A stretch of DNA of 64,000 bases from a virus (lineage: Duplodnaviria; Caudoviricetes): the IMG/VR virus record IMGVR_UViG_3300035497_000412; one strand, 5' to 3'. The notes below the pieces were generated by a model. It had not been told where the DNA came from, did no database searches, and worked only from the letters and a program-made list of their open reading frames with translations. The translations under genes were made by a program, and so were the position numbers. Shown here in pieces: positions 5,742-60,300 of the stretch (position 1 is its first letter; every line of letters begins with the position of its first letter).

Positions 5742-7116
5742 GATTAAAGATCAGTTTGAAGCTGTCGTGTCTTATTCTCAAGGAATTGAAAATCCAAATG
5801 CTGATGAGTTACTTGAACAATGGTATGAAAATAAGAAAGATTTTATTTCTTTGTTTAATGGCCAGTTGATTTATGAATGTCCTGAAAAAGTTACTTTTCA
5901 TCTTAAACCTGAGACACGACAGAACCATGTTTATGATGTAATCGATATGATTATAAATACTTGGGATAATAGAGTATTAAGCGACTTTATTCTATTCTGT
6001 AAAGATAGCTTTTTCCAGAATGTCGTTCCAAATGATTATTATTATTCTAAATTTGATATCGTTATTCCAAAAGGTTCTAAAATGGTAAGGTCTTTTAAGT
6101 ATTTTGAAAAAGACAAAGAAGTTTTAACCGATATTCAAAATTATGTAAGTCGTATTATCCAAGAGGATAAAGTTGAGGGTCATTTATGCTTTTCAGTTCA
6201 CCCTCTTGATTATCTTTCTTCTAGTGAAAATACTTACCAATGGCGCTCTTGTCACGCACTTGATGGAGATTATAGAGCTGGCAATTTGAGCTATATGGTT
6301 GATAATAGCACAATTATTTGCTATTTAAAGGGAGACAAAGAGGAAAAGCTACCTTGTTTCCCCGAGGAAGTTAAATGGAATTCTAAAAAGTGGAGAATGC
6401 TATTGTTCTTTTCCAATGATCGCTCTATGATGTTTGCAGGCCGCCAATATCCTTTTGAAGCAACTTCAATTTTGAATTTTATTAAAGAGCAAGACGTCAT
6501 TAAGAAATTCTCCCCTGACGCGCAATGGTCGTGGGGAGAATGGTCTGATGAAAGAGTAGATAAGGTTGGAGAATGCGATTTAGATGTAGCATATTATCCG
6601 GTTAATGGAAAATTAATTTCTGCCAACGAACTAATTCAAGACAATAAAGATTCTTTGCAATGGAATGATTTGCTTCATTCTAAGAAATACAAGCCTTGTT
6701 ATTCCTATTTATATAAGACTAAAACACATTTTTTTAATAGCAAAAAGAAGTATATTTTTCTTGCAACTTCAGAATATACTCGTTTTCATATCGGCGGTAG
6801 AGTATCGTGTTTGCGCTGTGGTAAGAGTACAATTGAATATTCTTCATCATTCCAGTGTAAAGAATGTGATTTGATATATGGTAAAATTGAAGATGATCGA
6901 TTTGGCTATTGTAGCAATTGCGGCCAGCGCATTTTTATTGAAGATGGATACTTTGTTGGAGATGAATTGATTTGTGAAGCTTGTTATGAAACTGAAGTCA
7001 GGGAATGCGAATTGTGTGGAGCATTAGTTTATAATACTGAAATCAGTTATGATAGAAAAACGGGAAAATATATTTGTTATAATTGTAAAGAATATTTAGA
7101 AGAAGAGGAGGAATGA
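5728..7116 (+). CDS. hypothetical protein, HPLDY/KKWR motifs with Cys-rich tail
   Basis: FSVHPLDY..S...WRSC, NSKKWR, GRQYP; ATG at 5728 follows an AGAGGAG RBS. Confidence 0.6.
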   Translation: MELDKIKDQFEAVVSYSQGIENPNADELLEQWYENKKDFISLFNGQLIYECPEKVTFHLKPETRQNHVYDVIDMIINTWDNRVLSDFILFCKDSFFQNVVPNDYYYSKFDIVIPKGSKMVRSFKYFEKDKEVLTDIQNYVSRIIQEDKVEGHLCFSVHPLDYLSSSENTYQWRSCHALDGDYRAGNLSYMVDNSTIICYLKGDKEEKLPCFPEEVKWNSKKWRMLLFFSNDRSMMFAGRQYPFEATSILNFIKEQDVIKKFSPDAQWSWGEWSDERVDKVGECDLDVAYYPVNGKLISANELIQDNKDSLQWNDLLHSKKYKPCYSYLYKTKTHFFNSKKKYIFLATSEYTRFHIGGRVSCLRCGKSTIEYSSSFQCKECDLIYGKIEDDRFGYCSNCGQRIFIEDGYFVGDELICEACYETEVRECELCGALVYNTEISYDRKTGKYICYNCKEYLEEEEE

Positions 7117-7119
7117 CTT

Positions 7120-7410
7120 ATCGCAAGAGGTAGTACAGCTAAGCAGTCTGTTGAGTCAAAGATTGCGCAAGTTTTTGGAAATGATTATATTGGTAATATT
7201 GGTGGTAAGGTGTATGTATGGGCAGATGATGGTGGAGAGCGGGTTCAGATTGCCATCGCAATGACGTGTCCGAAGACCTTTGTCGAAGATGAAACGAGGC
7301 CGAAGCCCGCAAGTAACACTTTAGATTTTGAGATAGAAAAACCAAGAGCAGAGATTACCAAAGAGGAAAGAGCTACTATTAATGAACTCCTGGCGGCTCT
7401 TGGCTTGTAA
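7120..7410 (+). CDS. hypothetical protein, probable ATC start
   Basis: GGAGG RBS, then ATC GCA AGA GGT in frame with the 7210 ORF. Confidence 0.5.
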   Translation: MARGSTAKQSVESKIAQVFGNDYIGNIGGKVYVWADDGGERVQIAIAMTCPKTFVEDETRPKPASNTLDFEIEKPRAEITKEERATINELLAALGL

Positions 7411-9021: not shown

Positions 9022-9169
9022 GAGCTAGTGGCGCAATGGTAGCGCAACGCACTTGTCATAATAGTATAAGAAATATAGTTCTTATTTATAAGAAAAGATA
9101 TAAGTCCAAATCTTATTTATGGCACCATTAATGCGTGGGTTGCGGGTTCAAATCCCGCCTAGCTCACCA
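9022..9169 (+). tRNA. tRNA-Lys(TTT) split by a 73-nt tRNA-like insertion (exons 9022-9054 and 9128-9169)
   Basis: Acceptor GAGCTAG/CTAGCTC+ACCA; anticodon stem ACGCA/TGCGT; joining the exons gives loop CTTTTAA. Confidence 0.8.
9055..9127 (+). ncRNA. degenerate tRNA-like element nested in the tRNA-Lys anticodon
   Basis: GTCATAA/TTATGGC acceptor stem + A + CCA; T arm ATAAG-TCCAAAT-CTTAT; AT-drifted D and anticodon arms. Confidence 0.75.
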
Positions 9170-12739: not shown

Positions 12740-12785
12740 TAATTTTATAAGGGATAAGTATTACCTTATCCCTTATAAATCTTAT

Positions 12786-13099
12786 AGTGGCATGGTGTAA
12801 TGGTAGCACAGCGGTCTCTTGAAAATTGGACACCTAGCGTCGAAAGTGCTAGTGTGAATGGAGCCTAAAACGGGGAAACCCTAAGTGAATTTTTCATATG
12901 GCAATCCCGTGCTAAACTTCTACTTGTCAGTAGAAGAAATGTGTAGAGACTATATAGTTCCAATCTAACCCAAATTTTGGTATGATTAAGAGATAGTCCA
13001 GACCACAACAATTATTTTGGCTATGGAAACATAGTGTGGTAAGAAAACCGTATCCCCCTGAAGGAGTAAGTGAAAGTTCGAATCTTTCTGCCACTGCCA
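12786..13099 (+). tRNA. amber suppressor tRNA(CTA) with group I intron (exons 12786-12819 and 13044-13099)
   Basis: AGTGGCA/TGCCACT+GCCA; stem GCGGT/ACCGT; spliced loop CT-CTA-AA; long variable arm. Confidence 0.8.
12820..13043 (+). mobile_element. group I intron in the suppressor tRNA anticodon
   Basis: Core AAAACGGGGAAA, AATCCCGTG, GTAGAGACTA and AAGAGATAGTCC; follows U, ends in G; IGS ATTGGA pairs with TCT|AA. Confidence 0.9.
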
Positions 13100-16582: not shown

Positions 16583-18109
16583 TTATGAAATAACTTTGTA
16601 TCTCAAATTTGTATAAGTAATAGTAACGGGGAAAGATCCACCATTTGAACTAAAACGAGAAGAAGAGTTAAATTGAATACCAGGATAAGTTGAACTCAAT
16701 CCTGCGGTTACACCACTTGTATTATCATAATTAGAACCATTATAGATACCAATATAGGTCTTAGCTGTATCTGTTAAAGTCTGACTATATGTCACTTCAT
16801 CAAAATATACCTTAACAGTTTCGCTACCAGTTAGACTTCCATCCGTAAAGAGGACGCCTTGAGACTTTGCAGTAAAGGTGATTGTTAAAGTATGAGTATC
16901 ATCATCAACAGTAAATGATTCACCACCGGCTTTTTCAGTATTGGTAGAAATCATGCTAGTAGTAACATATACGCTGTCATCAGTAGGAGTTTCAGTACCA
17001 GAATCCCCTCCGCTAGAAGTTTCAGTCTCAGGTTCTGTATATAATCTATATTGACCAATAGGGATATACTTTTTAGAATAGTCTGTATCTCCAGTGTCTT
17101 TAAAAACAATTGCTCTAATGTCAATATAATCTTCATATACATCAATTATAGCACCCTCAGACTCATTTGGCATACTCACTCGGGTTGAAGAAAGAGAAGA
17201 ATTACCAACACTTGAATCAATAGGATAAGCGCAAGAAGGTATATGAACGCACCAAGCAGAAGTTCTATTTACATTAGTGAGAGGCCAGACATTTGCTTTC
17301 TCCTCCCAATTTTGCAAATACCATTTCCAGTGACTATGACCATTAAACCATATAACTCTAGGGTAGGCGTCTCTTAATGCTTTTAATGACGTCAGCATGG
17401 TGCCGCTTAACCAGTTGCCGCTGGGGTAAATTTGCTAAAAATTTCCAGAAGCGTCTGGGAAAAACATATGCGTAATAACAAAACATCTATCATTTTTATA
17501 AGCTTCTAATTTATTTCCAAGCCAAGTGATATCAGCTGTGGCATATGTATTAGAACTAAATTCATATCTCTTCATTCCTAAAAATAGGAAATGATCAGTA
17601 ACATTATTGTGCGTTTTTGTAACTTCGTAAGAGTAAGTCGCGTCTGTAGACGTATATAAATCCGCAGTTCCAGTATACGTTTTCCAAGTAGCAATATCAA
17701 TATCGCTACTATTAGGACAATCATGATTACCGGTTGTAGGATAAACTGGAGTATTATTTGAAATTGCATTTAAGTTCTCTTGATATAAAGCTAATTCAGA
17801 ACTTAAATCGCCAGTGCTATAACTTGTTTGAGTGAGGTCGCCGCAAATTACTGTAAATTCTACATCTTCTTTTTCGTTGAAGAAAGTTAGAGCATTACGA
17901 ATGTCGTCCTGGTTTTCGTCAGCCTGACTTGTCTCATTATGGACGTCAGAAAGAACACCAAAACGATATAATCTTTCTCCAAAAGAGGGCTTAAATGAGC
18001 TGAGCGGGATCGCTCCAACTCGATTTCCATTTGAGTCATATACACCAATCTTTTTGGCAGCATATGGCGCAATATTTTGTTTATTAAAACCAGTGTAAGT
18101 ATTCGCCAT
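16583..18109 (-). CDS. calcineurin-like metallophosphoesterase with C-terminal beta domain (TAG=Gln at 17435-17437)
   Basis: SDVH, CGDL, GNHD, ITH and GHSH are split between two in-frame track ORFs. Confidence 0.8.
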
Positions 18110-18510
18110 TATGACACCTCCATAGTAGTGATTGGCTTCCAATCCTCTAGTTTTTCATTATTATCATCTTCGTAATACAAAGTGTAAGTTCCTGCATCTA
18201 GGTTTTCAAGAGTAATAACATTCTCAGAAGAGATATTACCAATATCTTTAGTATTTTGGAGATAAGATTGAAGATAAGCCTGAATGGCCTATTGGACAAA
18301 AGCAGTAGTAGCAATTTGCTCACTACTATCATCTGCGGCAGGTGTTGGAGCTTTTGGAGTTCCAGTTAAGGTGGGGCTATCTAAATCAGCCTTAGCCTCA
18401 TCAACTGCCTCAACGACTGCGGTTAGCTCATCTCCGGTTACGAAATTTCCAGAAATCTTATTCCATAATAAACCTAAACCAGTCTAATCTAAAAATTTCT
18501 TAATTTCCAA
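18109..18510 (-). CDS. tail-fibre-related protein (2 TAG=Gln), absent from the ORF track
   Basis: KKFLD*TG matches KKFLDQTG of the neighbouring gene; SPTLTGTPKAPT...QIATTAFV tail-fibre motif. Confidence 0.75.
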
Positions 18511-20470: not shown

Positions 20471-21334
20471 ATGAAGAGACTATTTAATCTTGGAATTATA
20501 TTAACAGTATTACTGAGTATACTTACTATGCAATGTTATGCAGAGAATCTTAGAGAAAATCCAAATTTTGAAGCAAATATTATAGATAATTTACCCGAAG
20601 AGGCCGAGGTAAAAGTCTTATCTATGGATGGGCACTGGTATTATATTTTTTATAATGGTAATTATGGATATCTTTATAATCCATATGCAGAGACTGTTAA
20701 ACTAACAGGAACTGTTAGCGCCCAAATAGCATTAATTCGTCAGAGTCCCGATGATGAAAGCGAGATTATTGGAGTCTTAGCAGAAAATGAAGTTGTTGTA
20801 ATTGAAGAAATTACAGACGATTGGTATAAATTGGAAGATGGATATATACGACGAGATTTTCTTTAGTTAGAAGAAAATGATAATGATACCGCAGAGCAAG
20901 AAATAATTACTATAGTAGAAGAAGACTTCGTTCCAATAGAAGAATTAATTGATCCTAATATAAACATTATAATTACTCCTAAAATAGTATCTATAACTAA
21001 GAAATATTTAGGAGTCCCTTATATTTGGGGTGGAACTACTCCAACAGGATTTGATTGTTCAGGATTTACTCAATATGTAATGCGCCAATGCGGTTACTCG
21101 ATCAATCGAACGGCCGCAAACCAGTATAGCAATGGGACATATGTTGCTTATAGTGATTTACAGGCAGGAGATTTAGTATTTTTCTCTTCTGGAGGTAAAA
21201 TTAATCACGTTGGCATCTATATTGGAGATGGACAATTTATCCACTCGCCGCATACTGGAGACGTAGTAAAAATTTCTAGTTTATCTGAAACATATTATAC
21301 CAATCACTATTATGGTGCAAGACGAGTATCATAA
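20471..21334 (+). CDS. secreted SH3b + NlpC/P60 peptidoglycan peptidase (TAG=Gln at 20864)
   Basis: Signal peptide, two SH3b-like repeats, YLGVPYIWGG..GFDCSG and HVGIY. Confidence 0.85.
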
Positions 21335-26215: not shown

Positions 26216-26783
26216 ACGATCTGGTTTACTTCAGATTGGCATTAGCCACTTTAATCATAACAAGGACTTCATTTGGAAATCAAGAGGATTTTCAAGCGTT
26301 GAAGAGATGAATAAGGAAATTGTGTTTCGACATAATCTTTTTGTTTCTCTGTGGGATGATGTCTATGTACTTGGTGATCTTTGTCTTGGCGCGGATGACG
26401 TTTATGAAGATAATAAACGTCTTATTGAATCTTTGAATGGCAGACTTCATATTGTGCTGGGAAACCATGATAGCCAAAAGCGCATTGAAATGTATAAAAC
26501 TTGCAAGAATGTTGTTGAAATTTGCGGCTATGCTACAATGCTAAAGTATAAGAAATACATTTTTTATATTAGCCATTATCCAACTTTGACAAGTAACTTT
26601 GATAATACTAAGCCGCTAAAAGCAAAAACTATCAATCTGTGTGGACATGGTCATGTTGAAGACAAGTTTGCGGATATTGATAAAGGCTTGATTTATCATG
26701 TGGAAATGGACGCACACAGTTGCTACCCTATTGCCCTTGATGATATTATTGAACAACTTAAATATAGATATTTAGAGGTATGA
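26216..26783 (+). CDS. metallophosphoesterase; ACG start and a 7-nt out-of-frame insertion at 26243-26249
   Basis: FTSDWH|FNHN is restored by skipping 7 nt; LGDL, GNHD, SHYP and GHGH downstream. Confidence 0.7.
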
Positions 26784-27691: not shown

Positions 27692-29228
27692 ATGAAACGC
27701 AATTTCTATGATACAAGCAGTCTACTATTAAGAGCTGATGATTTATTTTCAAAAGAAGAAAATATAGCCTTTTCTTCCATAACTTTACAAGAATTGGAAA
27801 GCATTAAAAGTTCAACGAGTAAAGATTTAGATATAAAATTTGCAGCTCGAAAACTTCTTCATCTTTTTATTAGACATCCAAACGAATATGAAGTTTTTAT
27901 TTATAATGATAATATGAATACTCCTATTTGCAAAAAGGGGCTAGAATTAACAAATGATACCAAAATTCTAGCAACTGCTATAGCATATGATCAAGCATAT
28001 CCAGATGAAGTTATATTTATTACTAATGATTTAGCTTTATACAATATTGCCAATCTATTTTTTGGTAATGATAGTATTGATATGGTTGAAGAGGATAAAG
28101 CAGATGATTACACTGGATATTTACAGGTCAATATGAGTGAATAGGAAATGGAATATTTTTATTCTAATATGAATAAAAATATTTATGATTTATTAGTAAA
28201 TCAATATTTAGTCATTTGTGATAAAGATAATAATTTTGTTGATAGCTATTGCTGGACGGGTGAAAATTATCGTCCTTTAAATTATGATGCTTTTAATTCT
28301 ATTTGGTTTGGTAAGGTTAAACCTTATAAGAATGATGTATATCAAAGACTGCTATTTGATAGCTTATATAATAATGATATGACTATCATTAGAGGTCCAG
28401 CTGGATGCGGTAAGAGTTTTTGCGCAATGAGCTATTTAATGTATGCGCTTGATAAAGGCATTATTGATAAGATTTATATTTTTTGTAATCCAGTAGCTAC
28501 AAAAGATTCCGCTCGACTTGGGTTAATTTAAATTAGGGTAAGGCTCAAGTATAAAACTCCGTGAATTGCTGGAACCTCCTTAGAGCTATACAAACCACAA
28601 CATAAACATGAAATAAGGTTAAATGTGAAGGTTTAAGAATTGTGTAGATTGGACAATCAGCAGCGAAGCCTCGAATAGAGGAACGTTCATCGACTATCGA
28701 AAAGCGCATATGCGAACTTAGTAGAGTAGGATAATTATCCGAAGCGCGGAGATTCTATTTTTAGAATAAGATATAGTCAGGCTTTTGATGAAAGTCAAAA
28801 GGTTAAATGTTTACCCTGGCGATAAGAACATGAAGCTTTTAGATTCTCAGATTGGAAATTTTTTAGTCGGTAAATTTGGAGGAATGGAAGCCGTAGATGA
28901 ATTAATTGAAAAAGGTCAATTGATTTTAGCACCAATTTCAGATTGCAGAGGAACCGATTTAAGTGGAAAAATTGGAGTTTATATGACTGAAGCGCAAAAT
29001 ACAACTGTTGATATAATGCAATTAGTTCTCCAAAGAGTTGGCAGTAATTGTAAAGTTATCATTGAAGGTGACGATAAAGCACAAGTTGATTTAAATGCTT
29101 ACTCCAATGGAAACAATGGTCTAAGAAAAGCTTCTCAAGTTTTTAGAGGACAAGATTATTATGGAGAAATTACACTAAATGCTTGCCATAGATCAAAAAT
29201 TGCTAGACAAGCAGAATTAATGACCTAA
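27692..29228 (+). CDS. phoH: PIN-PhoH protein (TAG=Gln at 28142; intron 28524-28809)
   Basis: PIN YDTS/ELE/NDTKI/TND; Walker A GPAGCGKS; spliced LG|FYPGD; RG, EAQN, GD..QVD. Confidence 0.85.
28524..28809 (+). mobile_element. group I intron in phoH
   Basis: AATTGCTGGAA, AATCAGCAG, CATCGACTA and AAGATATAGTC; removal restores the frame. Confidence 0.9.
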
Positions 29229-37866: not shown

Positions 37867-38811
37867 ATGATTATTATTGGAATTATTTGCCTTATTATTG
37901 GACTTGTGGTCGGTTATGCCGTTTAGCGGCCAAAAGTTAAGGCAACGCAGATTTTAGATAAAGAAACGGCCCAAAAGAATCAACAACTTTAGATTGAACT
38001 TGCGCAATTAAGCGCACAAAGAGATGAATTTAAAGACTCTATCCAAATCTTAGAAAATTAGTCTAAAGAAGCTGGAGAAAAATTTCTTGCGCAAGCAAAA
38101 CGAGCAGCAGAACTTAACTTTGAGCAACAAACTGAGGCTTTAGCACGGTCTTACCAAGAGAACAAAGAACAAAGTGATGCTGAATATCTAAATGTTCTTG
38201 AAGATTTAGCTGCTAATGCACAAAAGCAAATCCAAGAGTATCAAAGAAAGATTTCTGATTGTAAAGAAGAATTCATAGAGCTTAATAGAACTTTAGAGCT
38301 AAAAGCTTCCGAAGTGGCAGCCGCAGTTGAAGCGAGTAAAAGAGCTGAAGAAATGGAAAATAAAAAAGATTTTTATCGGCTTGTATTAAGTGACGAAGAT
38401 ATTTCAGAGATTAAGCGCTTGCGTGAAGTAACAGCCTATTTGCGTAATAGTGAACCTATTAACAAGGTTATTTGGAAAACTTATTATGAAAAACCTTATA
38501 CTGATTTAGTTGGTAGAGTAGTAGGAACTGGCGTTCATACTGGTATTTATAAAATTACAAATATTGAGAATGGTAAGTGTTATGTGGGACAAGCTCGTAA
38601 CATTGCTGAACGCTTTCGCCAACACATTAAAAGAGGTATCGGTGCGGAGACCCCTACGCGCAATAAACTCTATCCAGCTATGTTAGCTATTGGAGTAGAA
38701 AATTTTACTTTTGAAGTAATTGAAGAATGTGATGCGTCTATGCTGAATGAAAGAGAAGACGCATGGCAGCAGTATTTTAAAAGTATTGAATATGGATATA
38801 GCATTAAATAA
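37867..38811 (+). CDS. membrane-anchored coiled-coil protein with C-terminal GIY-YIG domain (3 TAG=Gln)
   Basis: N-terminal TM helix, heptad region, GIYKITN...YVGQA..I.ERF.QH. Confidence 0.7.
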
Positions 38812-49310: not shown

Positions 49311-50497
49311 TTGGTTCTTACTAATAAGCAAGAAGCGGGATTGAAAGAGATTGTAGCCAGATACAACGCAGGAGAAAAATATACTGTTGTATCTGGCTAC
49401 GCCTGAAATCCGGCGTAGGAAAATCAACATTGGTAAAATTTGCCATTGAAGCACTTGATGCTTCTTCAAAGGCTGTGGCTTTTTGTGCCTACACCGGCAA
49501 AGCCGCAGAAGTCTTGCGAAAGAAAGGCAATAAAGGAGCAATGACACTTCATAGACTTCTTTATGATAGCTATCCTCGTAAAGGCGGAGGTTTTTATAGA
49601 AAACCGAAACCTAAATTAGAGTATAATATAGTGGTCGTTGATGAAGCATCAATGATTCCTAAAACTATGATAGATCTTTTACTCTCTCATAAAATTTATG
49701 TAATTTTTTTAGGTGATCCTTTCCAATTGGATGTTATAAATAAGGAAGAGGCCCATGATTTACTTGACCATCCCCATGTTTTTCTAGATGAAGTTATGCG
49801 TCAAGCTGCTGAATCAGAAATTATTCGCATGACCATGAAAATTCGTAATATGGAAAATATTCCATATCAAAATGGTTCAGAGGTAATGGTTATGCGCAAG
49901 TCTCAATTAGTTGATGGCTGTTACACTTGGGCAGATCAGATTCTTTGTGCTACCAACAGAAAAAGAAAAGAAATTAATGATTATGTGCGGCAGATGCTTG
50001 GTTTTAGCGGGCTACCACAAGAGGGCGACCGCATGATTTGCCTAAGAAACTACTGGGATGAATGCGCTTCTAATGGTGATGCCCTTGTTAATGGTTCTAC
50101 TGGAATTATTCATCAGCCGATGGAGGGAGAAGTGCGAGTCCCCCGCTGGTTACAAATAGAAAATAATGCTCTTCAAACTATTGACTGTTCTTTTGAAACA
50201 GAAGAGGGGTCTTACTTTGGAGGTATCCGTATGGATAGGTGCATGATTGAGACTGGTGAAAAATGCGTTGATTGGAGAACTTCTTACAGATTAGGCCAAT
50301 TGAAAAGCAGAATTGGAGATATTGTCCCAAGAGAATTTGATTTTGGTTATGCTGTTACAACATGGAAAGCGCAGGGTTCAGAATGGCCAAAAGTTCTAGT
50401 TATAGAAGAAAACTTCCCTTTTGACAAAATGGAACACGCACGATTTTTATATACTAGTTGTACAAGAGCTAGTGAAAAATTAGTACTAGTGAGGTAA
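49311..50497 (+). CDS. RecD/Dda-like SF1B helicase with an 8-nt out-of-frame insertion at 49404-49411
   Basis: LT.KQ; SGYA|GVGKST restored by skipping 8 nt; TGKAA, DEASM, GD..QL, RQ, KAQGSEW, YT..TRA. Confidence 0.8.
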
Positions 50498-50854
50498 AAT
50501 ATGGAATATAATTATTATTGGTACCATCATATGATTGATGACGCTTATCGTGAAAATGTCCAAAACGCAATTGACAATCATGATTTTGAAACATTCATCT
50601 ATTGGTATAAAAAGTTGAATAGTAAGGGAATTCTGGAAGGATACATTGATTCAGAATTTAATTGTTTTATTCCTCTTATTTATTTGCCTGATAGTATTTA
50701 TGTACCAGAACAAAATGATTATATTTCGGTATTAGATAGAAATAATTTCAATAAAATTACATTTAGTGAATCCGAATGCGGATGAATTGATTTTTCTTAA
50801 AAAATATGGTATAATATAGTATATTATATAAGAAGGGGGATGGTTAGTAATATT

Positions 50855-53800
50855 ATGAAGAGTAAAACTTTCCCAGGAAGTCTTCATAATCATTAGTGGA
50901 GTATACCCAATACAGTAACACAAGACTTCGTGATTGTATTATTAAAGAAAATGATTTAATCGATTATGCGATTGAATTAGGACATGAAGTGGTAGCTATT
51001 ACCGACCATGAATGTATTAGTAATGCCATTAAAGTCCAAAAGTATTATAACAAAATTAAAAAAAACCATCCTAATTTTAAAGTAATTTTAGGTAATGAGA
51101 TTTATCTTTGTCGTAATGGTTTAACAAAAGACAATTTTATTAAAGGGCAAGACAAGTTTTGGCACTTTATTCTCTTGGCGAAAGATGCTATTGGTCATCA
51201 ACAAATTAGAGAAATTTCTACAAGAGCATGGTATCGTTCATGGATGACAGGTAAAATGCGGCGAGTGCCAACTTACTATCAAGACATTAAAGAAATTATT
51301 GGCGCCAATCCGGGCCATGTGATTGGGTCAACGGCCTGCCTGGGCAGCTTTTTATCCTCTTTAGTCCTGCAATATGAATCTTCTGACCAAAAAGAAGAAT
51401 ATTTAAATCAGATTCGTTATTGGGTTGAAGGTATGGAAAAATTCTTCGAAAAAGGGAATTTCTTCTTTGAACTTCAGCCCTCTGCTTCAAAAGAACAAAC
51501 TTATGTAAATCAGTTTTTAGTTTCTCTTTCTTCTGAAATGAATATTCCATATATTATTACAACAGACAGTCATTATCTTACTAAAAAAGATAGACCTATT
51601 CATAAAGCTTATTTAAATGCACAAGAAGGTGAGCGTGAAGTTGACAGCTTTTATGCCACCACTTATATGATGAATACAGAGGAGTTAGAGAGTTATTTAG
51701 ACTTAAATGAAGAGCAATTAGAAATAGCATATCAAAATATTAGAAAAATTAAAGATATGTGTTCTGATTACGATTTGCAAAAACCATTAAGAATCCCAGA
51801 ATTAACATGGAAAAAGCCAAAAAATTTGGTTAATCCTGAACAATATTATAGTCAGATTCCCTATCTAAAAGCTTTTATCAATTCAGACTACAATGGAGAT
51901 AAAATACTTGCACAGCATATTGTAGACAGACTTTTTTGGGATGAAACGCTTCAAAATCAAAAGACTTACGAAGCAGTAGATGAATGTCTTAAAATGACCT
52001 GGGAATCTTCTCTTGTCAATAAAACGCATTGGAGTGCTTATTATTTAAATCTACAAAAAATTATTGATACAGTGTGGGATGCAGGGAGTTTAGTTGGTCC
52101 GGGTAGAGGTTCTGGTGTTGGGTTAAAAGTTAGGCTCAACTAAAAATTCGTGAACTATATTGCTTATAGGTGTCTAGTATAAAATACTAGGCTAACGGTT
52201 CAGAAGGTAGTAATACCATTATGAGTAAGGGAACCTAAGTCTTTTTTACTAAAAAGATAAGGAAATACCGTGTCAAGTTTGTTTAATAAAGGTTCATCCT
52301 TTTTTATATATAATAGGAAGATTAGTAATAATTAACTTAATTTATATATAAAAAAAGGAGAAGATAAAGTGGGTTTTATTTATAAAGCAACAAATAATAT
52401 AAATAAAAAAGTCTATATTGGAAAGACCACAAGAACCCTTAAAGATAGAAAAAAGGAACATATTAGTCACGCCAAATCAGAAGATTATTATTTTCATAAC
52501 GCTTTAAGAAAATATGGTGCTGAGAATTTTACTTGGGAAATAATAGAAGAGGTAGAACTAGATAAAATAAACGAACGAGAATGTTATTGGATTGAATATT
52601 ATAAAAGCTATAAAGATAAAAGTAAAGGATATAATTTAACTCCTGGCGGTGAAGGATTTAAATTATCAGAAGAAACCAAAAGGAAAATATCTGCGGCTAA
52701 CGCCGGTAAAGTAAGGACTCCTGAAATGAGACAGCATTTAAGTGAAGTTAAAAAAGCGTTACATTTTAGGCATACAGAAGAAACAAAGAAAAAAATGAGT
52801 GCAGCAAGAAGAGGAAGAAAGCTTTCTCCTGAAACAATAGAAAAATTAAAACAAATAGAAAGAACTTCAGAATGGAGAGAAAAAATTAGTAAAGCACTTA
52901 AAGGAAGAACTTACTCGGAGGAGACAAAAATAAAAATGAGTGAAGCCGCAAAAGACCATTTTACTTTTTATACTTCTAACGATTTAATTTTTCATACTTG
53001 GGGAGAAATTTTCCGGTATCTTAAAGATAATAATCTAATAACTACCGATGATATTGCGGTTTGTAGAAATTGTATTAGACCAGCAATAGATAATCTAGAA
53101 CTTGTTCGTTACGGAATGAAATGGAAAACTTCAATTTTTACAGAGGAAGAAAAAATTATTGCTCCTAGAAAATGTTCTGAAAAAACCAAGAAAAAAATTG
53201 GTGCAGCAAATAGCAATAAAAACGAAATTGTTATGATGATTCGATTTGACGGAGATAAACAAGAATTTGCTTCAAGAAGAGAAGCTTATGACTATTGTAT
53301 TAAACAAAAATACATTCCTAATACACAAGTTTATTCAAAATTTTCTTCAAAAATAGGAGAAGCTTCAAAAACAGGCAATAAATTTAAGGGAATGAACTGG
53401 ATTATTAAACAAAAAGATGTAGAGACTATCGAAAAGTAAAAAAAATTTTTTACCGAGTAGAGTAGGGCGGAAGATAAGCTACCGTTCGAAGTGCGAATTG
53501 CTTATATGTTAAGTAAAGAGATAGTCCATACTATATAGAAATATATAATAAATAGTTATACTTTTATATATCCTCGATATTACACAAATAAATCCCTTGC
53601 GGGAAACTACTAAGACATATAGCTGGAGATTTCTTAATCCCAGTCGTGTATCTGTGTTGGATTAATATAAAATTTTAAAAAGAAATTTTAATAGTCCCCT
53701 TACATTGGAAGATGTAAAGGAAAAACTCTGAATATCAGGGAAAGCCCTTAGAGCTTTTATTACCAAGCGTTAATGAAAATGAAACGTGGCTGAAGTAATT

Positions 53801-56755
53801 ACTCAGGTATGGTAACAAGATAAAAGATTGGGTAATCCTGAGACATAGCCCTAAGTCTTTAAGGATAAGGGAAGGTCGCAACGACTACCAAGGAGAGCCG
53901 AGAAACGGTTATGGTATAGTCTATTCCCCTAGTTAAATATCGGGAAACCGAGGGTATAAAAGGTTGACTTTGATATCGAAGGAGGCAGACGTCCGCAAGT
54001 TTTGGCGAAGTTCCGAGAAGTGTATGGTGAAGATAGAGTAGCTAACGTTATTACTTTTGGAACAGAAAAATCTAAATCAGCCATTTTAACTGCGGCTAGA
54101 GGTTTAAATATTGAACACGATGATGCACAATATTTAGCTTCTTTAATTCCAGCAGATAGAGGTATTACAAGAACTCTTAAACAATGTTATTATGGAGATC
54201 AAGAAAGCGGATTTGCTCCAATAGCTCAGTTTGTAAAAGAAATGGATAATTATCCCGAGTTATGGGAAGTTGCTCAAAAAATCGAAGGTCTGGTTTGTCG
54301 ATCTGGAATTCATGCAGGCGGTGTTATTTTTGTTGATGAATCTTTTACTAATTCAACTGGATTAATGCGCGCGCCAGATGGTACTATTGTAACAGCATAT
54401 GACCTTCATGATTCAGAAGATGTGAGTCAGCGAAAGCTAAGGCTCCTAAATACCTAATCACTTATCAGTGATGTTATATAGGCTCTTAGAAATAAGGTAA
54501 GTAAAAAATACCTATATAGCACCGGGGAAACCTAAGTAATAAAAAATTATATGGCGATCCCGGACTAAATTGGGTATTACCCATAAATGTCTATCGACTA
54601 TCCCCCAGAAGGGGAGTAAGGTTACTATTGATACGTAATCTGAAACGGTATTCTCTCAAAAAGAGTAAGAGATAGTCAGTACCATTGGAAACAATGGAAT
54701 AATACGCTAATTAAATACGATGCACTTTCTGTTGAAGCAGAAGATAAAATTCATTTATGCTTAGACCTGTTATGCAATGCTGGATATATTGAGCGTAAAC
54801 CTACTTTAAAAGAAACATATGAAAACGCTTTGAATATTTATTCTCTTGAAAGAGATGACCCTAAAATGTGGGAAATGACATGGAAACATGAGATTCTTTC
54901 TTTGTTCCAAATGGAGAAGCAAAGTGGTATTCAAGGCATTGCATTAACAAAACCTAAAAGTGTTGAAGATTTAGCCCACCTTAACTCTGTAATTCGTCTA
55001 ATGGCTCAAGAAAAGGGTGGCGAACAGCCTCTTCAAAAATTTGCTAGATTTAAACAAAATATTAATCTTTGGTATAAAGAAATGAATAGATATGGCTTAA
55101 CTAAAGCAGAGCAAGAATTATTAAAGCCATATCTCAGTAGTTCTTATGGTATTTGTGAAGCGCAGGAAACTTTTATGATGCTTGTTCAGATTCCTGAGTG
55201 CGGCGGGTTTGATCTAAACTGGGCCGATCGGCTCCGCAAGAGCATCGCAAAGAAGAATCCTGCGGAGTTTGATCAATTGACAAAAGAATATTTCGTTAGA
55301 GCCAATGAAAAAAATTTAAGTAAAAATTTATGTAATTATGTGTGGAATGTTCTAGTGTCTACTAGTCGCGGGTATGGATTTAATCTATCTCATACATTAG
55401 CATATTCTCTAGTAGCTCTTCAGGAAATGAATTTAGCTTATAAATATCCTACCATTTATTGGAATTGTGCTTGTCTTATTAATGATAGTGGTAGTATTGA
55501 ATATGATAAAGATGTAGATGCAGAAGACCAAAATACCAATTATGACAAAATTGCCCAAGCTATTGGTAAAATGCGTGAAGCTGGAGTTAAAATTAGCCTT
55601 GTAGATATAAACAAATCAAGTTATACTTTTATTCCAGATGAAAAGAATAATCAAATTCTTTATGGAATGAAAGGTCTTGTAAATGTTAGCGATGATTTAG
55701 TAGAACAAATTATTGCAAACCGTCCTTATACTTCTATTAAAGACTTTTACTATAAAGTAAAGCCCAAAAAACAGTCAATGATTTCATTGATTAAAAGTGG
55801 TGCTTTTGATACAATGGAAGACAGAAAATTTGCGATGGCCTGGTTTATTTGGGAAACGTGTGATAAAAAGAGTAGACTTACTCTCCAAAATATGCCAGGA
55901 TTAATTAAATATAACCTCCTGCCGCAAGATACTAATGAGCAAGTTATGGCTCGTAGAGTATATGAATTTAACAGATATTTAAAAGCAGTTTGTAAAAATT
56001 CTAGAGATACAGAAAATTATATTCTAACAGATAGAGCCATTAATTTCCTTGATGAATTAGAAATAGATTATAATGCTGATAGAACTTTATCTATTAAAAA
56101 ATGGGATAAGCATTATCAAAAATGGATGGATATTTTTAGAAATTGGATTACTGCTGATAAAGAAAATATCCTAAAATCTTTGAATCAAATCATTTTTATG
56201 GAAGAGTGGAATAAATACGCTAAAGGTAATATTTCAGCTTGGGAAATGCAAGCAATGTGTTTCTATTATCATGAACACGAACTGGCGCATTTAAACACAT
56301 CAAAATATGGGATTGTAGATTTCAATAAGCTTCCAGAAGAGCCAATTATTGAAAAGTCTTTCTCAAGAGGCGGAAAAACAATTAATATGTTTAAGCTATT
56401 TAAAATTTGCGGCACTTGCATTGCGAAAAATAAGGCAAAAGCTACTGTTACGTTACTTACTACTTCTGGAGTCGTAGAAGTTAAGTTCCGTAAAGAGTAC
56501 TTTAGTTTATTTGATAAGCAAATTTCCATAAAGAATGATGATGGAACTAAAACTATAGTCGAGCGCAGTTGGTTTAATCGAGGAAGTATGATTGTTGTCC
56601 AAGGTATCCGCTCTGGTGATAACTTTATTGTAAAAAAATATGCTTCTTCTGTTGGGCATCAACTTTATAAAATTCTTGAAGTTATTAATGGAACTGACCT
56701 AAAATTAACTAGTGAAAGATTCCAAGGGGGTGAAGAATCTGAAGACGAAGAATAA
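50855..56755 (+). CDS. dnaE: DNA polymerase III alpha subunit (3 group I introns plus an 11-nt insertion at 50894-50904)
   Basis: HNH|TQYS, AITDH, TDSHY, GRGSGVG|F, RFLN..R..LD|VDFD, HAGG, S|LIKYDAL, YGFNLSH. Confidence 0.9.
52124..53555 (+). mobile_element. group I intron 1 of dnaE, carrying a GIY-YIG homing endonuclease
   Basis: GCTAACGG/ATACCGTG, GTAGAGACTA and GAGATAGTCC; removal restores the frame. Confidence 0.9.
52369..53439 (+). CDS. GIY-YIG homing endonuclease with NUMOD3 repeats
   Basis: FIYKATN...YIGKT, GYNLTPGG, repeated SEETK.K(I/M)S. Confidence 0.9.
   Translation: MGFIYKATNNINKKVYIGKTTRTLKDRKKEHISHAKSEDYYFHNALRKYGAENFTWEIIEEVELDKINERECYWIEYYKSYKDKSKGYNLTPGGEGFKLSEETKRKISAANAGKVRTPEMRQHLSEVKKALHFRHTEETKKKMSAARRGRKLSPETIEKLKQIERTSEWREKISKALKGRTYSEETKIKMSEAAKDHFTFYTSNDLIFHTWGEIFRYLKDNNLITTDDIAVCRNCIRPAIDNLELVRYGMKWKTSIFTEEEKIIAPRKCSEKTKKKIGAANSNKNEIVMMIRFDGDKQEFASRREAYDYCIKQKYIPNTQVYSKFSSKIGEASKTGNKFKGMNWIIKQKDVETIEK
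53663..53962 (+). mobile_element. group I intron 2 of dnaE (no ORF), in the catalytic Asp motif
   Basis: AATATCAGGGAA/AATCCTGAG, CAACGACTAC and GTATAGTC; removal restores the frame. Confidence 0.9.
54428..54706 (+). mobile_element. group I intron 3 of dnaE (no ORF)
   Basis: CCGGGGAAA/ATCCCGG, TATCGACTA and GAGATAGTC; removal restores the frame. Confidence 0.9.
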
Positions 56756-57370: not shown

Positions 57371-60300
57371 ATGCTTGAAGTTATTAAACGAGATGGTTCT
57401 ACTGTCCTATTTGATAAAGAAAAAATTATAAACGCAATTAATAAAGCCTTTATCGAAGTGGATAATGAGCTATATGAAACAGATACCGCAGAAGATATTG
57501 CTTCAGAAATTGAAGTCGAAATTACTAAAAGCCCCATCAAGGTATCAGTTGAAACAATTCAAGACTGGATTGAAGAATCTTTAATGGAATCTGAGCGAAA
57601 AGATGTCGCTAGAGCTTATGTTAGATATAGATACAAGAAGGAAAAAGAGCGAGCTTTACAGGCCGATTTGGATTATCGTTTTAATAAATTTAGTGCTCTT
57701 ATCGCCGGAAAAGACGAAGAATCAAAAAAAGAGAATAGCAATAAAGACACTCGTATTATTCCTACGATGAGAGACTATATTGCAGGTTTTTCATGTAGAG
57801 ATATTGCTAAAAATTATTTTCCTAAAGAGATCTGGGAGGCTCATGAAAATGGGCTTATTCACATTCATGATACTGATTATAGTCCAGCAATGCCTATGTA
57901 TAATTGTAGTTTAATTAATCTTGAAGATATGCTACAAAATGGTACTGTAATTAGTAAGACTAAAATCGAAAAGCCTAAATCTTTTAGAACCGCCTGTACT
58001 GTTGCAACTCAAATTATTACACAAGTAGCATCATGTTAGTACGGCGGTAATACCATAAATCTTGCTCATTTGGCTCCGTTTGTTGATGTTTCTCGTCAAA
58101 AAATACATGAGCAAGTAAAACAAGAGCTTGAGTCTATTGTAACATATCCAAATGAAGTGATAGATAAAATCATTGAACAACGAGTTCTTGAAGAAATTAA
58201 AGATGGTATTCAGACTATTCAATATCAACTTATTACTATGAGCACAACTAATGGTCAAGCCCCATTTACTTCAATTTTTATGTGGATTGATCCTGATTAT
58301 GATGAAAATTTTCAACATGATTTAGCTTTAGTAATTGAAGAAGTTTTAAAGCAACGTATTGAAGGAGTAAAAAATGAACAAGGGGTTCCTGTTACTACAG
58401 CCTTTCCAAAGCTCCTTTATGTACTTGATGAAAATAATACTCATGAAAATAGTAAATATTGGTATCTCACTGAGCTTGCGGCTGAGTGTAGTGCCAAGCG
58501 TCTAGTACCAGATTATATTTCAGCAAAAAAAATGAGAGAACTTAAAAATGGAAATGTCTTTGGTTGCATGGGATGTAGATCATTCTTGCAAGATTATATA
58601 GATCCAGATACTGGAAAGCATAAATTTTGGGGTCGGTTGACTGCTTAAAGGTTAAGCCGACATTAAATTGCGTGAACTCATGACAAAGAGGTGTCTAACT
58701 TTTAGTTAGGCTAACGGTGAAAGCCGAAAGGACAATACCGTGCCAAGCCTTAAATAGGAAGGTGTAACGACTATGGGCGATGAATGTAACCCAGTAGAGC
58801 AGAGTTTGTCACTGTTCGAAGCGCGCAACTATTCTTAAATTGAGAATAGAAGAGATAGTCTAATTTTTGTTAACCAAGGCGTCTGCACATTAAATCTCGT
58901 GGATGTAGCACTTTCTTCTCAGGGCAATATGGAAAAGTTCTGGGAAATTCTAGATGAGCGTTTACAGATGTGTTATGATGTATTAATGATTCGTCATAAT
59001 GCTCTTAAAGGAACAAAATCTGATGTAGCGCCTATTCTGTGGCAACATGGTGCGATTGCGAGATTAAAGCCAGGAGAAACAATTGATTCTTTACTTTATA
59101 ATAATTATAGTTCTATTTCTCTTGGATACGCTGGGCTTTATGAATGTATTCATTACATGACTAATAGTTCTCAGTTAGAGCCAGAAGGCAAAGATTTTGG
59201 TTTAAAGGTCATGCAGACTCTTAAAAATGCTACCGATGAATGGGCAGCAAAAACCAATATAGGGTTTTCACTTTATGGTTCTCCTAAAATTAAAAACGTA
59301 GATTCTATGGGAGCTTATACAGTAATGTATAATGAAAAAACTGCTTAAAACGGGGAAGGATAAATTCTAATCCCGTGCTAAATTGCTATTATTCATAAAA
59401 AAAATAAAAAAGAGGTGAGAAAAACTGTCTATTTATTTAAAAGAATTGCCAAAAGATGCTAAAAAAATTAAAGGAACTTTAAATTGGTGCACACCAGATG
59501 GTATTATATATGGTCAAGATACTAGAATGGTACCAAATCGTTGGCGTCCAGATATGAAAACTCCAACAAAACATTATATGGAATATTTTAAAAATGCCAC
59601 CACAAAGAACCAAGGGTATATTTATGTTACTTTAAAATATATTAATCCTGATGGGACTTATACAAAAAAAACAAGGCGCGCGCATATCGTTATCGCAGAA
59701 ACTTTTCTTGATAATCCAAATAATTTGCCTGTTGTAGGACATAAAAATAATATAAAAACAGATAATAGATTAGAAAATCTTTATTGGACTACTTATCAAG
59801 AAAATACTAAAAAAGCAGTGGCAGATGGATTATTAGTAAACGATAAAGGTTATGATGATAGTCAATCTAAACCTGTTATTATGTATGACACTTACACTAA
59901 TAAAGAACTTGGAAGATATGGATCTATCTCAGAAGCTGCGAGAATTACTGGGTATTCTATAGCAACGATTGGACGTCAAGCTAAGTATAAACGTCCAGTG
60001 CGCAAACCCTGGTATTTTAGATATCAAGATGAATTTGAATAATAGCATAAATGTGTAGAGACTATCGAACGGTGATAAGCCTAGTAGAGTAGCGAAAGCG
60101 AAAGAGCAGTTTCCTTTGAGAAAAAGGATAAAAAGATAGTCCAAAACGATAAATGATAGAATCAACTACTTATAAATTTGCAGCTTGCTTAAAGAAGAAA
60201 TTTGGTATTATTCCTGGCGTAACTGATAAAAACTACATTACCAATAGTTACCATTAATTGATAGTGGCTTAATATAATAACATATTAAGAAAAACTTTGT

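Follow-up and report, generated by a model that had tools for sequence, protein, structure and literature searches.

Natural translational bypassing is, to our knowledge, confined to very few systems, namely the gene 60 family of phage T4, the mitochondrion of one yeast and, as a proposal, phage phiHau3. The bypass in T4 gene 60 was reportedly described by Huang in 1988. The present work deals with a stretch of 64,000 nucleotides (nt) from the virus record IMGVR_UViG_3300035497_000412 (Duplodnaviria; Caudoviricetes), hereafter called the window, in which the gene dnaE is broken close to its 5' end, in the HxH motif of the encoded PHP domain, by 11 nt that open with a stop codon. The window is a segment of a low-GC phage genome, and its source is an uncultured phage of the gut or rumen. 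The 11 nt (positions 50894-50904) are probably a programmed coding gap over which the ribosome hops, that is, a case of short translational bypassing. As in bypassing, two coding segments specify one conserved protein, and the take-off codon is immediately followed by a stop. Among known cases, T4 gene 60 and the 10-nt bypass proposed for phiHau3 come closest; a literature search returned no paper describing this family of gaps.

Members of the gene 60 family have conserved stop or hungry codons as well as conserved matched codons (bioRxiv 10.1101/2022.08.31.505936), and pairing of the mRNA exiting the ribosome has been discussed as aiding the bypass (bioRxiv 10.1101/2024.12.09.627546). Just as in T4 gene 60 and MobA, two frames and an untranslated gap would here give rise to one protein, a stop directly follows the take-off codon and landing may make use of the same tRNA. 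Furthermore, an essential replication gene is affected within an invariant motif, and there are signs of horizontal spread together with the 5' flank. The role put forward below for refolding of a hairpin also resembles the exit-side pairing of mRNA in gene 60. On the other hand, the gaps considered here comprise 4-12 nt (11 nt in the window) as opposed to the 50 nt of gene 60, folding shows no hairpin inside the gap whereas the take-off stem-loop of gene 60 holds the stop, and no homing endonuclease is adjacent whereas mobA or a replacement is present there. A long nascent-peptide signal is not possible in our case because only 11-31 residues have been made. Lastly, a conserved 5' hairpin abuts the take-off codon, while gene 60 and its homologues lack a conserved 5' stem-loop.

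For the terminase gene of the Streptomyces phage phiHau3, UUA-triggered bypasses of 10 nt have been proposed, and bypassing was confirmed by mass spectrometry of the junction peptide upon expression of a UUA to UAA construct in E. coli (PMC10732093). In both cases a phage gene is broken by some 10 nt that begin with a codon read slowly or not at all, the window containing an 11-nt gap and a 10-base-pair (bp) 5' helix. Structures around the site are predicted and a 5' stem-loop and a flanking Shine-Dalgarno (SD) sequence have been proposed for phiHau3, and there, too, bypass rather than frameshift is indicated. The trigger in our case differs in being a true stop instead of the rare sense codon UUA, the site is located at the very start of the gene, natural variants with co-varying hairpins occur by the dozen in three different genes, and the phages belong to another lineage and host group (gut or rumen).

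The bypassed byp elements of Magnusiomyces capitatus mitochondria are 27-55 nt long. Many bypassed inserts per genome, an undecodable codon in the A site and signs of mobility are features that they have in common with the present elements (cited in PMC10732093). Being mitochondrial and of such length, they are unlike the present gaps of 4-12 nt, which are accompanied by an upstream hairpin formed from coding sequence. In the +1 frameshift of prfB, the gene for RF2, a stop in the A site is combined with an upstream duplex between SD and anti-SD that is too near to the P-site codon and pushes the ribosome forward. The elements described here likewise have a stop for the A site and, shortly before the P-site codon, an RNA duplex, but the shift in prfB is by a single base to an overlapping codon and depends on SD:anti-SD pairing, whereas a move over 4-12 nt and an intramolecular hairpin would be involved in our case. 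Unexplained frameshifts within conserved motifs have also been noted in zeta crAss-like phages (Yutin et al., 2021; PMC7886860).

The broken reading frame of dnaE

The protein encoded by the window dnaE is 36% identical to YorL of SPbeta, the SPbeta group representing the best cultured relatives (~36%), and a megablast search of cultured phages with the dnaE region gave no match. About 120 relatives with 37-78% identity were collected from IMG/VR, metagenome contigs and GTDB genomes. The coordinates of all features are compiled in Table 1.

An SD sequence, AAGGGGG, is present at 50832-39 ahead of dnaE. From ATG 50855 or the in-frame ATG 50840 the upstream frame translates into M(VSNIM)KSKTFPGSLHNH* and is closed by the TAG at 50894, before which it reads MKSKTFPGSLHNH. 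The break itself consists of CAT (50885-87), AAT (50888-90), the take-off codon CAT, the stop TAG, TGG AG, the presumed landing triplet TAT and then ACC (50905-07). A long frame for the PHP domain is open from 50896, and its conserved part (TQYSNTRLRD...) starts with ACC 50905. Deletion of 50894-50904 yields LHNHTQYSNTRLRD and restores the motif as GSLHNH-TQYSN; YorL of SPbeta reads CHCHTDRSNIRLLD at the same place and about 110 closer relatives have GSLHNHTxYSNxRLRD. Because of an AT/AT repeat the edges of the gap can be moved by up to 2 nt, the zero frame ending at TAG in each case. When the TAG is read as a sense codon, the frame continues for 20 codons up to TAA 50957. The letters are thus as described in an earlier note made from this DNA alone, which had reported an 11-nt stop-led insertion in the HxHT motif, restoration of the motif when 50894-50904 is skipped, and no benefit from reading TAG as Gln. 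The presence of a stop-led 11-nt break in dnaE is confirmed. The gap is absent from the closest insert-free relative (L002), to which both flanks in the window are homologous; the two differ by the 11 nt and by remodelled first codons that create a hairpin.

Translation from ATG 50855 (or 50840) would bring CAU 50891-93 into the P site and UAG into the A site, where decoding would stall. The peptidyl-tRNA-His, carrying 13-18 residues, would then unpair from CAU, the mRNA would slide by 11 nt to the first YAY triplet and the tRNA would re-pair with UAU 50902-04. Decoding would resume at ACC, resulting in one polypeptide, ...GSLHNH-TQYSN..., with an intact metal-binding motif of the PHP domain. 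Against the Pfam PHP profile, this product scores 38.3 bits over profile positions 2-58. The hop would yield the junction peptide TFPGSLHNHTQYSNTR in the DnaE protein of the window and YPGSLHNHTQYSNLR in the common 8-nt CAT...CAA type of dnaE. All gap sites fall in the first 12-31 codons of their genes, and a hop that fails at so early a site would cost little. What the sequences show is the anatomy of the gap, its recurrence, the co-variation of the hairpin discussed below and that both gene halves are conserved; the hop as such, its efficiency and the role of the hairpin are what we infer.

Recurrence and common layout of the gaps

The motif GSLH-x-H-T-x-Y-S-N is unbroken in 79 of 110 dnaE relatives and broken by a short insert in the other 31, the window included. 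Seventeen different inserts of 5-12 nt occur after H1, N, H2 or S of GSLH-N-H-T-x-Y-S. With the inserted letters in brackets, those after the first His are CAT[TGACCCAA], CAT[TAGTGCAA] and CAT[TAGTTCAA] (8 nt) and the in-frame CAT[TAGTT(T/A/G)ATTCAT] (12 nt), those after Asn are AAT[TAGGGAAC] and AAT[TAGGGAGC] (8 nt) and AAT[TAAAC] (5 nt). The second His, the position affected in the window (CAT[TAGTGGAGTAT]ACC, 11 nt), is followed by 7 nt in L096 (CAC[TAGCTAT]ACC) and by 5 nt in L207 (CAT[TGAAT]ACC). After Ser, TCT[TAGCTCT], TCT[TAGCGTCA], TCT[TAGCGTATCT], TCT[TAGTGTGTCT] and TCT[TAGCGAAATCT] are found, with 7, 8, 10, 10 and 11 nt, respectively. The 11-nt insert of L104 was read from the sequence by eye and not by script. 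In carriers for which the whole gene was retrieved (L004, L014/15, L018) the dnaE frames are otherwise open over ~1320 codons. As 31 of 110 relatives carry stop-led inserts in otherwise intact genes, the break in dnaE is, judged by these sequences, neither a sequencing error nor a sign of a decaying pseudogene.

It could still be argued that the copy in the window is defective or that its 11 nt are an assembly artefact, with no functional DnaE protein being made, because the 11-nt variant is present only in this contig. However, the insert exhibits all features of the family, i.e. a stop in first position, an NAT landing like that of L096 and L207 and a 10-bp helix that is not present in L002. 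A random error would not create these features together, and the remainder of the gene is conserved. We therefore regard a defect or artefact as very unlikely.

Two further elements of this type are located in the same window. The gene for a RecD-like helicase reads GGC TAC GCC [TGAAATCC] GGC GTA GGA AAA, with TGA opening the gap, and skipping the insert restores SGYA-GVGKST; the helicase of relative L003 has SGYAGTGKST unbroken. A single-sequence search did not return helicase relatives, so a two-sequence profile was used, and 21 distinct carrier sequences were found among 80 helicase relatives from IMG/VR. Their inserts comprise 5 nt (TAACT, TAACC, TGACC, TGACT), 7 nt (TAAGGCA, TAAAGCT) or 8 nt (TAAGAGTA), or are in frame (TAAGCA, TGAACT, TAAGCT, TAAGTT, TAAACC). 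In the gene for a metallophosphoesterase, GAT TGG CAT [TAGCCAC] TTT contains a 7-nt gap (26243-49) with CAC as landing triplet, the removal of which restores SDWH-FNH; the homologues of L026 and L029 carry a 4-nt gap two codons further on, TGT[TAGC]CAT. Similar gaps of 4-12 nt, each preceded by a co-varying RNA hairpin, were seen in about 60 related phage sequences, which points to hopping of the ribosome.

The layout is the same throughout. All 32 variants (17 from dnaE, 13 from the helicase, 2 from the phosphoesterase) open with TAG, TGA or TAA, and this stop is in the upstream frame and comes straight after the last codon that is conserved. In the homologous family of 8- and 12-nt inserts the identity of the stop varies, TGA/TAG (TGA/TAG/TAA), while a stop is always kept. 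In many variants the landing triplet is identical to or synonymous with the take-off codon (CAT to CAT, AAT to AAC, TCT to TCT or TCA, CAT to CAC, GCT to GCT or GCA), nearly all others match it in two of three bases (CAT to CAA, CAT or CAC to TAT, CAT to AAT, AAT to AGC, GCC to ACC or TCC), and for a few landings in the helicase the match is to a synonymous Ala codon only (GCC to ACT in L144/145/148/151, GCT to ACC in L150). In the window, CAU to UAU is near-cognate for tRNA-His (G.U, A-U, U.G). The sequence of codon, stop, short gap and codon matched in two of three bases to which the earlier note had drawn attention therefore recurs many times in the relatives, and the same layout together with cognate landings in many variants strengthens its core reading of a hop from the codon before the stop to the matched triplet. 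An SD-like element within the gap, GGAG in the window and GGGAG in L014, is absent from most variants.

Whether the gap after one and the same codon comprises 5, 7 or 11 nt, or the inserts of one family 8 or 12 nt, the resume codon stays the same. This cannot be explained by a fixed +1 or -1 frameshift but can be by re-pairing of the peptidyl-tRNA further downstream. A +2 or -1 frameshift at CAU_UAG in the window would produce HNH-VEY-TQYS with three extra residues. While the frame from 50896 is indeed open and an A-site stop is known to promote frameshifting, examples being prfB and antizyme, the site lacks a slippery sequence and tRNA-His cannot re-pair at -1 or +2. Moreover, the 5-, 7- and 11-nt gaps at this codon and the in-frame gaps of 6 and 12 nt elsewhere cannot share one shift, and the additional residues would be placed within the most conserved motif, lowering the PHP score by 8 bits (30.1 bits with the extra VEY). 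Such a frameshift is extremely improbable.

Termination at TAG could also be followed by reinitiation, in which case a 13-codon leader reading frame would precede a restart at GTG 50896 and DnaE would lack its first strand and the HxH motif. The GTG overlaps the stop by one base (UAGUG) and opens the long frame, and some relatives have TTG (e.g. L004) or GTG (e.g. L042) near the gap. Nevertheless, this explanation is unlikely. GTG 50896 is not preceded by an SD sequence, and a protein starting there scores only 28.9 bits against PHP (profile positions 9-58) instead of 38.3. HxH is nearly invariant across the ~110 dnaE relatives, and the upstream mini open reading frames (ORFs) keep ...GSLHNHTDYS despite synonymous differences (ACA GAC, ACT GAT, ACC GAC, ACT CAG), which argues that they are under selection and translated as part of the protein. 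Inserts after Ser in dnaE would entail the loss of HNHTDYS, and all helicase inserts that of the strand before Walker A. L014, L018, L053 and the 5-nt helicase gaps do not offer ATG, GTG or TTG nearby in the landing frame. In the case of the in-frame TAA gaps of the helicase, which an amber suppressor is unable to read and which have no start codon near in the landing frame, both reinitiation and readthrough fail.

The hairpin abutting the take-off codon

The earlier note had not mentioned a 5' hairpin that directly adjoins the take-off codon. For the 54 nt up to this codon in the window, the minimum free energy is -9.8 kcal/mol with a 10-bp helix (50852-61/50881-90), as compared to -2.6 kcal/mol and no such helix in L002. 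A helix of 7-10 bp, in which the first codons are paired with the codons before take-off and which ends 0-2 nt from the take-off codon, is present in all dnaE carriers, whereas only 10-21% of the non-carriers reach 8 bp at a given site. At the position of the window gap, L207 has a co-varying helix (AUUAUGGAG/CUCCAUAAU; AAGA/UCUU in the window versus GGAG/CUCC in L207), and the variants after Ser have five different helices, AGUCUGU/ACAGACU, AAUCAGU/ACUGAUU, AUAGUCG/CGACUAU, ACUGAGU/ACUCAGU and AAUAAUCA/UGAUUAUU. The helicase inserts are all situated behind a helix NGUAGCC(AG)/(CU)GGCUAYG that reaches the first base of the GCN take-off codon. For the copy in the window, the folding energy of the hairpin is -25.9 kcal/mol (z -7.6); the helix core is kept in the 21 helicase carriers with four compensatory pairs, a result equalled by only 1 of 500 shuffles. 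The phosphoesterase helices of L026 and L029 co-vary as well, ACCCACU versus ACUCACU (read by eye, not folded). A hairpin that encloses the gap, as in the window helicase, is no common feature, L004, L014 and L018 folding no better than shuffled sequence, and an 8-bp long-range pairing of the window, GAAGUCUU/AAGACUUC, was not seen in the relatives.

As a separate observation, CUACGCC in the window helicase (49397-49418) can pair either with the upstream arm of the hairpin or with GGCGUAG past the gap, the two pairings being mutually exclusive and the second being specific to this phage.

The hairpin may well form part of the signal for bypassing. It would be melted while the ribosome occupies the take-off codon, with its 3' arm inside the ribosome, and refolding with the free 5' arm would be possible only if the mRNA moved forward, so that refolding would impose a forward bias on the movement.

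A conserved, co-varying hairpin adjoining every gap could, on the other hand, also be expected of a micro-intron that is removed from the mRNA by a nuclease and a ligase recognizing the hairpin. The genome is rich in RNA-processing elements, and the flanks CTACGCC and GGCGTAG of the window helicase can pair around the gap. However, such pairing of the flanks is not general, excision does not require an in-frame stop in first position, which is present in 32 of 32 variants, nor would it call for a last triplet that agrees, in codon register, with the codon ahead of the stop. We know of no bacterial or phage system that removes 4-12 nt from mRNA, and consider removal at the RNA level highly unlikely.

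Some points speak against bypassing at this locus. Non-programmed short hops over stops are inefficient in E. coli, in the order of 1%. Hallmarks of gene 60, i.e. a take-off stem-loop in the gap and an adjacent homing endonuclease, are absent. The landing triplet UAU in the window is only near-cognate for tRNA-His, with two G.U pairs, and if UAU serves well for landing, the UAU within the 12-nt gap of L046 and L060 would cause premature landing out of frame. The hairpins are AU-rich and singly not very stable (z -1.8 in the window), about 10-20% of the non-carriers have equally long helices by chance or ancestry, and the 11-nt variant is a singleton.

The distribution of hairpin and gap is mosaic. 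L060, with a 12-nt insert, and the insert-free L056 are ~97% identical downstream of the motif and unrelated upstream, homology breaking at the gap, and L042 and L047 are distinguished by nothing but a stretch of ~70 nt that begins at the ribosome-binding site and reaches the gap. The patch GGTGATG..ATGAAAACTA..GGTAGTTTRCAT-stop is common to carriers of the 8- and 12-nt inserts after the first His on six or more branches of the DnaE tree. On these grounds hairpin and gap appear to move between genomes as one unit. A homing endonuclease was not found next to the carriers: the ORF at 50501-50785 upstream of the window dnaE is without Pfam match, and the upstream neighbours of dnaE in L004, L014 and L018 are genes for RecJ or a methyltransferase. 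We tentatively put forward, as a possibility somewhat short of even chances, that these elements represent a widespread modular cassette of gut and rumen phages, consisting of a 5' coding hairpin, a sense codon, a stop and 1-9 bases, that would allow efficient hops by refolding, unlike gene 60, would spread as a patch of ~70 nt and would alter the DNA of the most conserved motifs but not the protein. If so, the change in motif DNA may, for example, serve to escape a nuclease or to make the output of early genes depend on the state of release factors or suppressors.

The natural variants of the element number in the dozens, are spread over three essential genes and cover gaps of 4-12 nt, three stops, cognate and near-cognate landings and co-varying hairpins; together they constitute a ready-made mutational series on how a ribosome leaves and re-finds its frame over short distances. 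Standard gene callers would take replication genes of this kind for truncated genes or pseudogenes in many phage genomes from metagenomes.

Introns of dnaE, TAG reassignment and further candidates

Contrary to the statement in the earlier note that the rest of dnaE is intact, the gene is also interrupted by three group I introns and is intact only after their removal, which the mature dnaE mRNA would additionally require. The interruptions were identified by protein alignment to an uninterrupted relative and by Pfam. Rfam gave no intron when applied to the entire dnaE region; group I matches came only from short sub-regions. At the residue of intron 1, dnaE is interrupted in L002 and L008 as well, and L003 and L010 are interrupted at a further site. 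Mid-gene conserved sites of dnaE hold group I introns instead of short gaps. The proposal that the 11-nt insert is itself a collapsed group I intron was not supported: none of ~120 relatives (0 of ~120) has an intron or a long insert at this site, an Rfam match is lacking there, and the likeness of TAGTGG to the guide of the nrdD intron is at chance level, with 12 near matches versus 11.2 expected.

Table 1. Positions of the dnaE gap, its hairpin, the exons and introns of dnaE and the two related elements in the window
Feature	Position	Strand	Remarks
Metallophosphoesterase element (third)	26217..26249	+	8-bp hairpin ends 1 nt before take-off CAT 26240-42
RecD-like helicase element (second)	49352..49411	+	hairpin ~49352-49401; take-off GCC 49401-03; 8-nt gap TGAAATCC 49404-11
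Putative hop hairpin, 5' arm AUUAUGAAGA	50852..50861	+	includes start codon; pairs perfectly with 50881-90 over 10 bp
Likely dnaE start codon ATG	50855..50857	+	alternative: in-frame ATG 50840, aligns with GTG start of L002
Putative hop hairpin, 3' arm UCUUCAUAAU	50881..50890	+	from folding; ends directly before take-off codon
Take-off codon CAT	50891..50893	+	second His of PHP HxH motif; codon 13 from ATG 50855
Putative 11-nt untranslated gap TAGTGGAGTAT	50894..50904	+	stop TAG 50894-96; SD-like GGAG 50898-901; landing TAT 50902-04
dnaE exon 1 after gap	50905..52140	+	resume codon ACC, PHP domain, start of pol III alpha domain; 3' end approximate
dnaE intron 1	52141..53575	+	GIY-YIG + NUMOD3 homing endonuclease ORF 52369-53439; edges approximate
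dnaE exon 2	53576..53662	+	29 codons
dnaE intron 2	53663..53962	+	ORF-less; RF00028 at 53677-53943, 38.7 bits, E 4.6e-8, below gathering score
dnaE exon 3	53963..54427	+	
dnaE intron 3	54428..54703	+	ORF-less; RF00028 at 54446-54698, 32.4 bits, E 3.5e-6, below gathering score
dnaE exon 4	54704..56755	+	finger and HhH domains, C-terminus

Given the effect of TAG=Gln on the reading frames and a group I intron in a tRNA-like region (12809-13021), both described below, it is plausible that TAG is suppressed late in infection, which at the dnaE gap would divert ribosomes along the zero frame to its dead end. Where a phage reassigns TAG, a gap led by this codon could link polymerase synthesis to the switch between early and late genetic code. 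Since sites in the relatives use TGA or TAA and the window helicase gap uses TGA, competition by a suppressor is not a general rationale for the gaps.

When TAG is read as Gln, several ORFs of the window merge or lengthen, e.g. 16583-18142, 20471-21334, 27692-28531 and 57371-58648, consistent with reassignment of TAG in part of the genome. The helicase gene of one relative (L003:960-2207) contains five in-frame TAG codons and specifies one conserved protein under TAG=Gln, so that in some relatives even replication genes employ a reassigned TAG.

Scanning the window mechanically for a codon followed by a stop, a short gap and a matched codon was too noisy without homology, and the sites at 7131 and 38051 are mere candidates. 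At 7113-7140, where a fourth stop-led gap may be located, a strong SD sequence is followed by ATG ACT TAT CGC AAG AGG, [TAGT] and a frame of 91 codons that is without a start codon near its 5' end; no hairpin was seen at this place. At 38024-38070, TCT[TAGAAAATTAGTCT]AAA comes after a 9-codon ORF and precedes a frame of 248 codons, which may point to a 14-nt gap whose TCT codons match or else to a plain gene with TAG as Gln.

A group I intron at 12809-13021 (RF00028, 54.5 bits, above gathering score) lies beside a weak match to one half of a tRNA at 13033-13096, as would be expected of a tRNA that is split by an intron and therefore missed by ARAGORN; a weak match to the ssNA-helicase RNA motif is located at 12743-12792 (E 0.011, below gathering score). 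At 9022-9166 the Rfam tRNA model spans 145 nt in the absence of an ARAGORN call, which suggests a tRNA with a large insertion.

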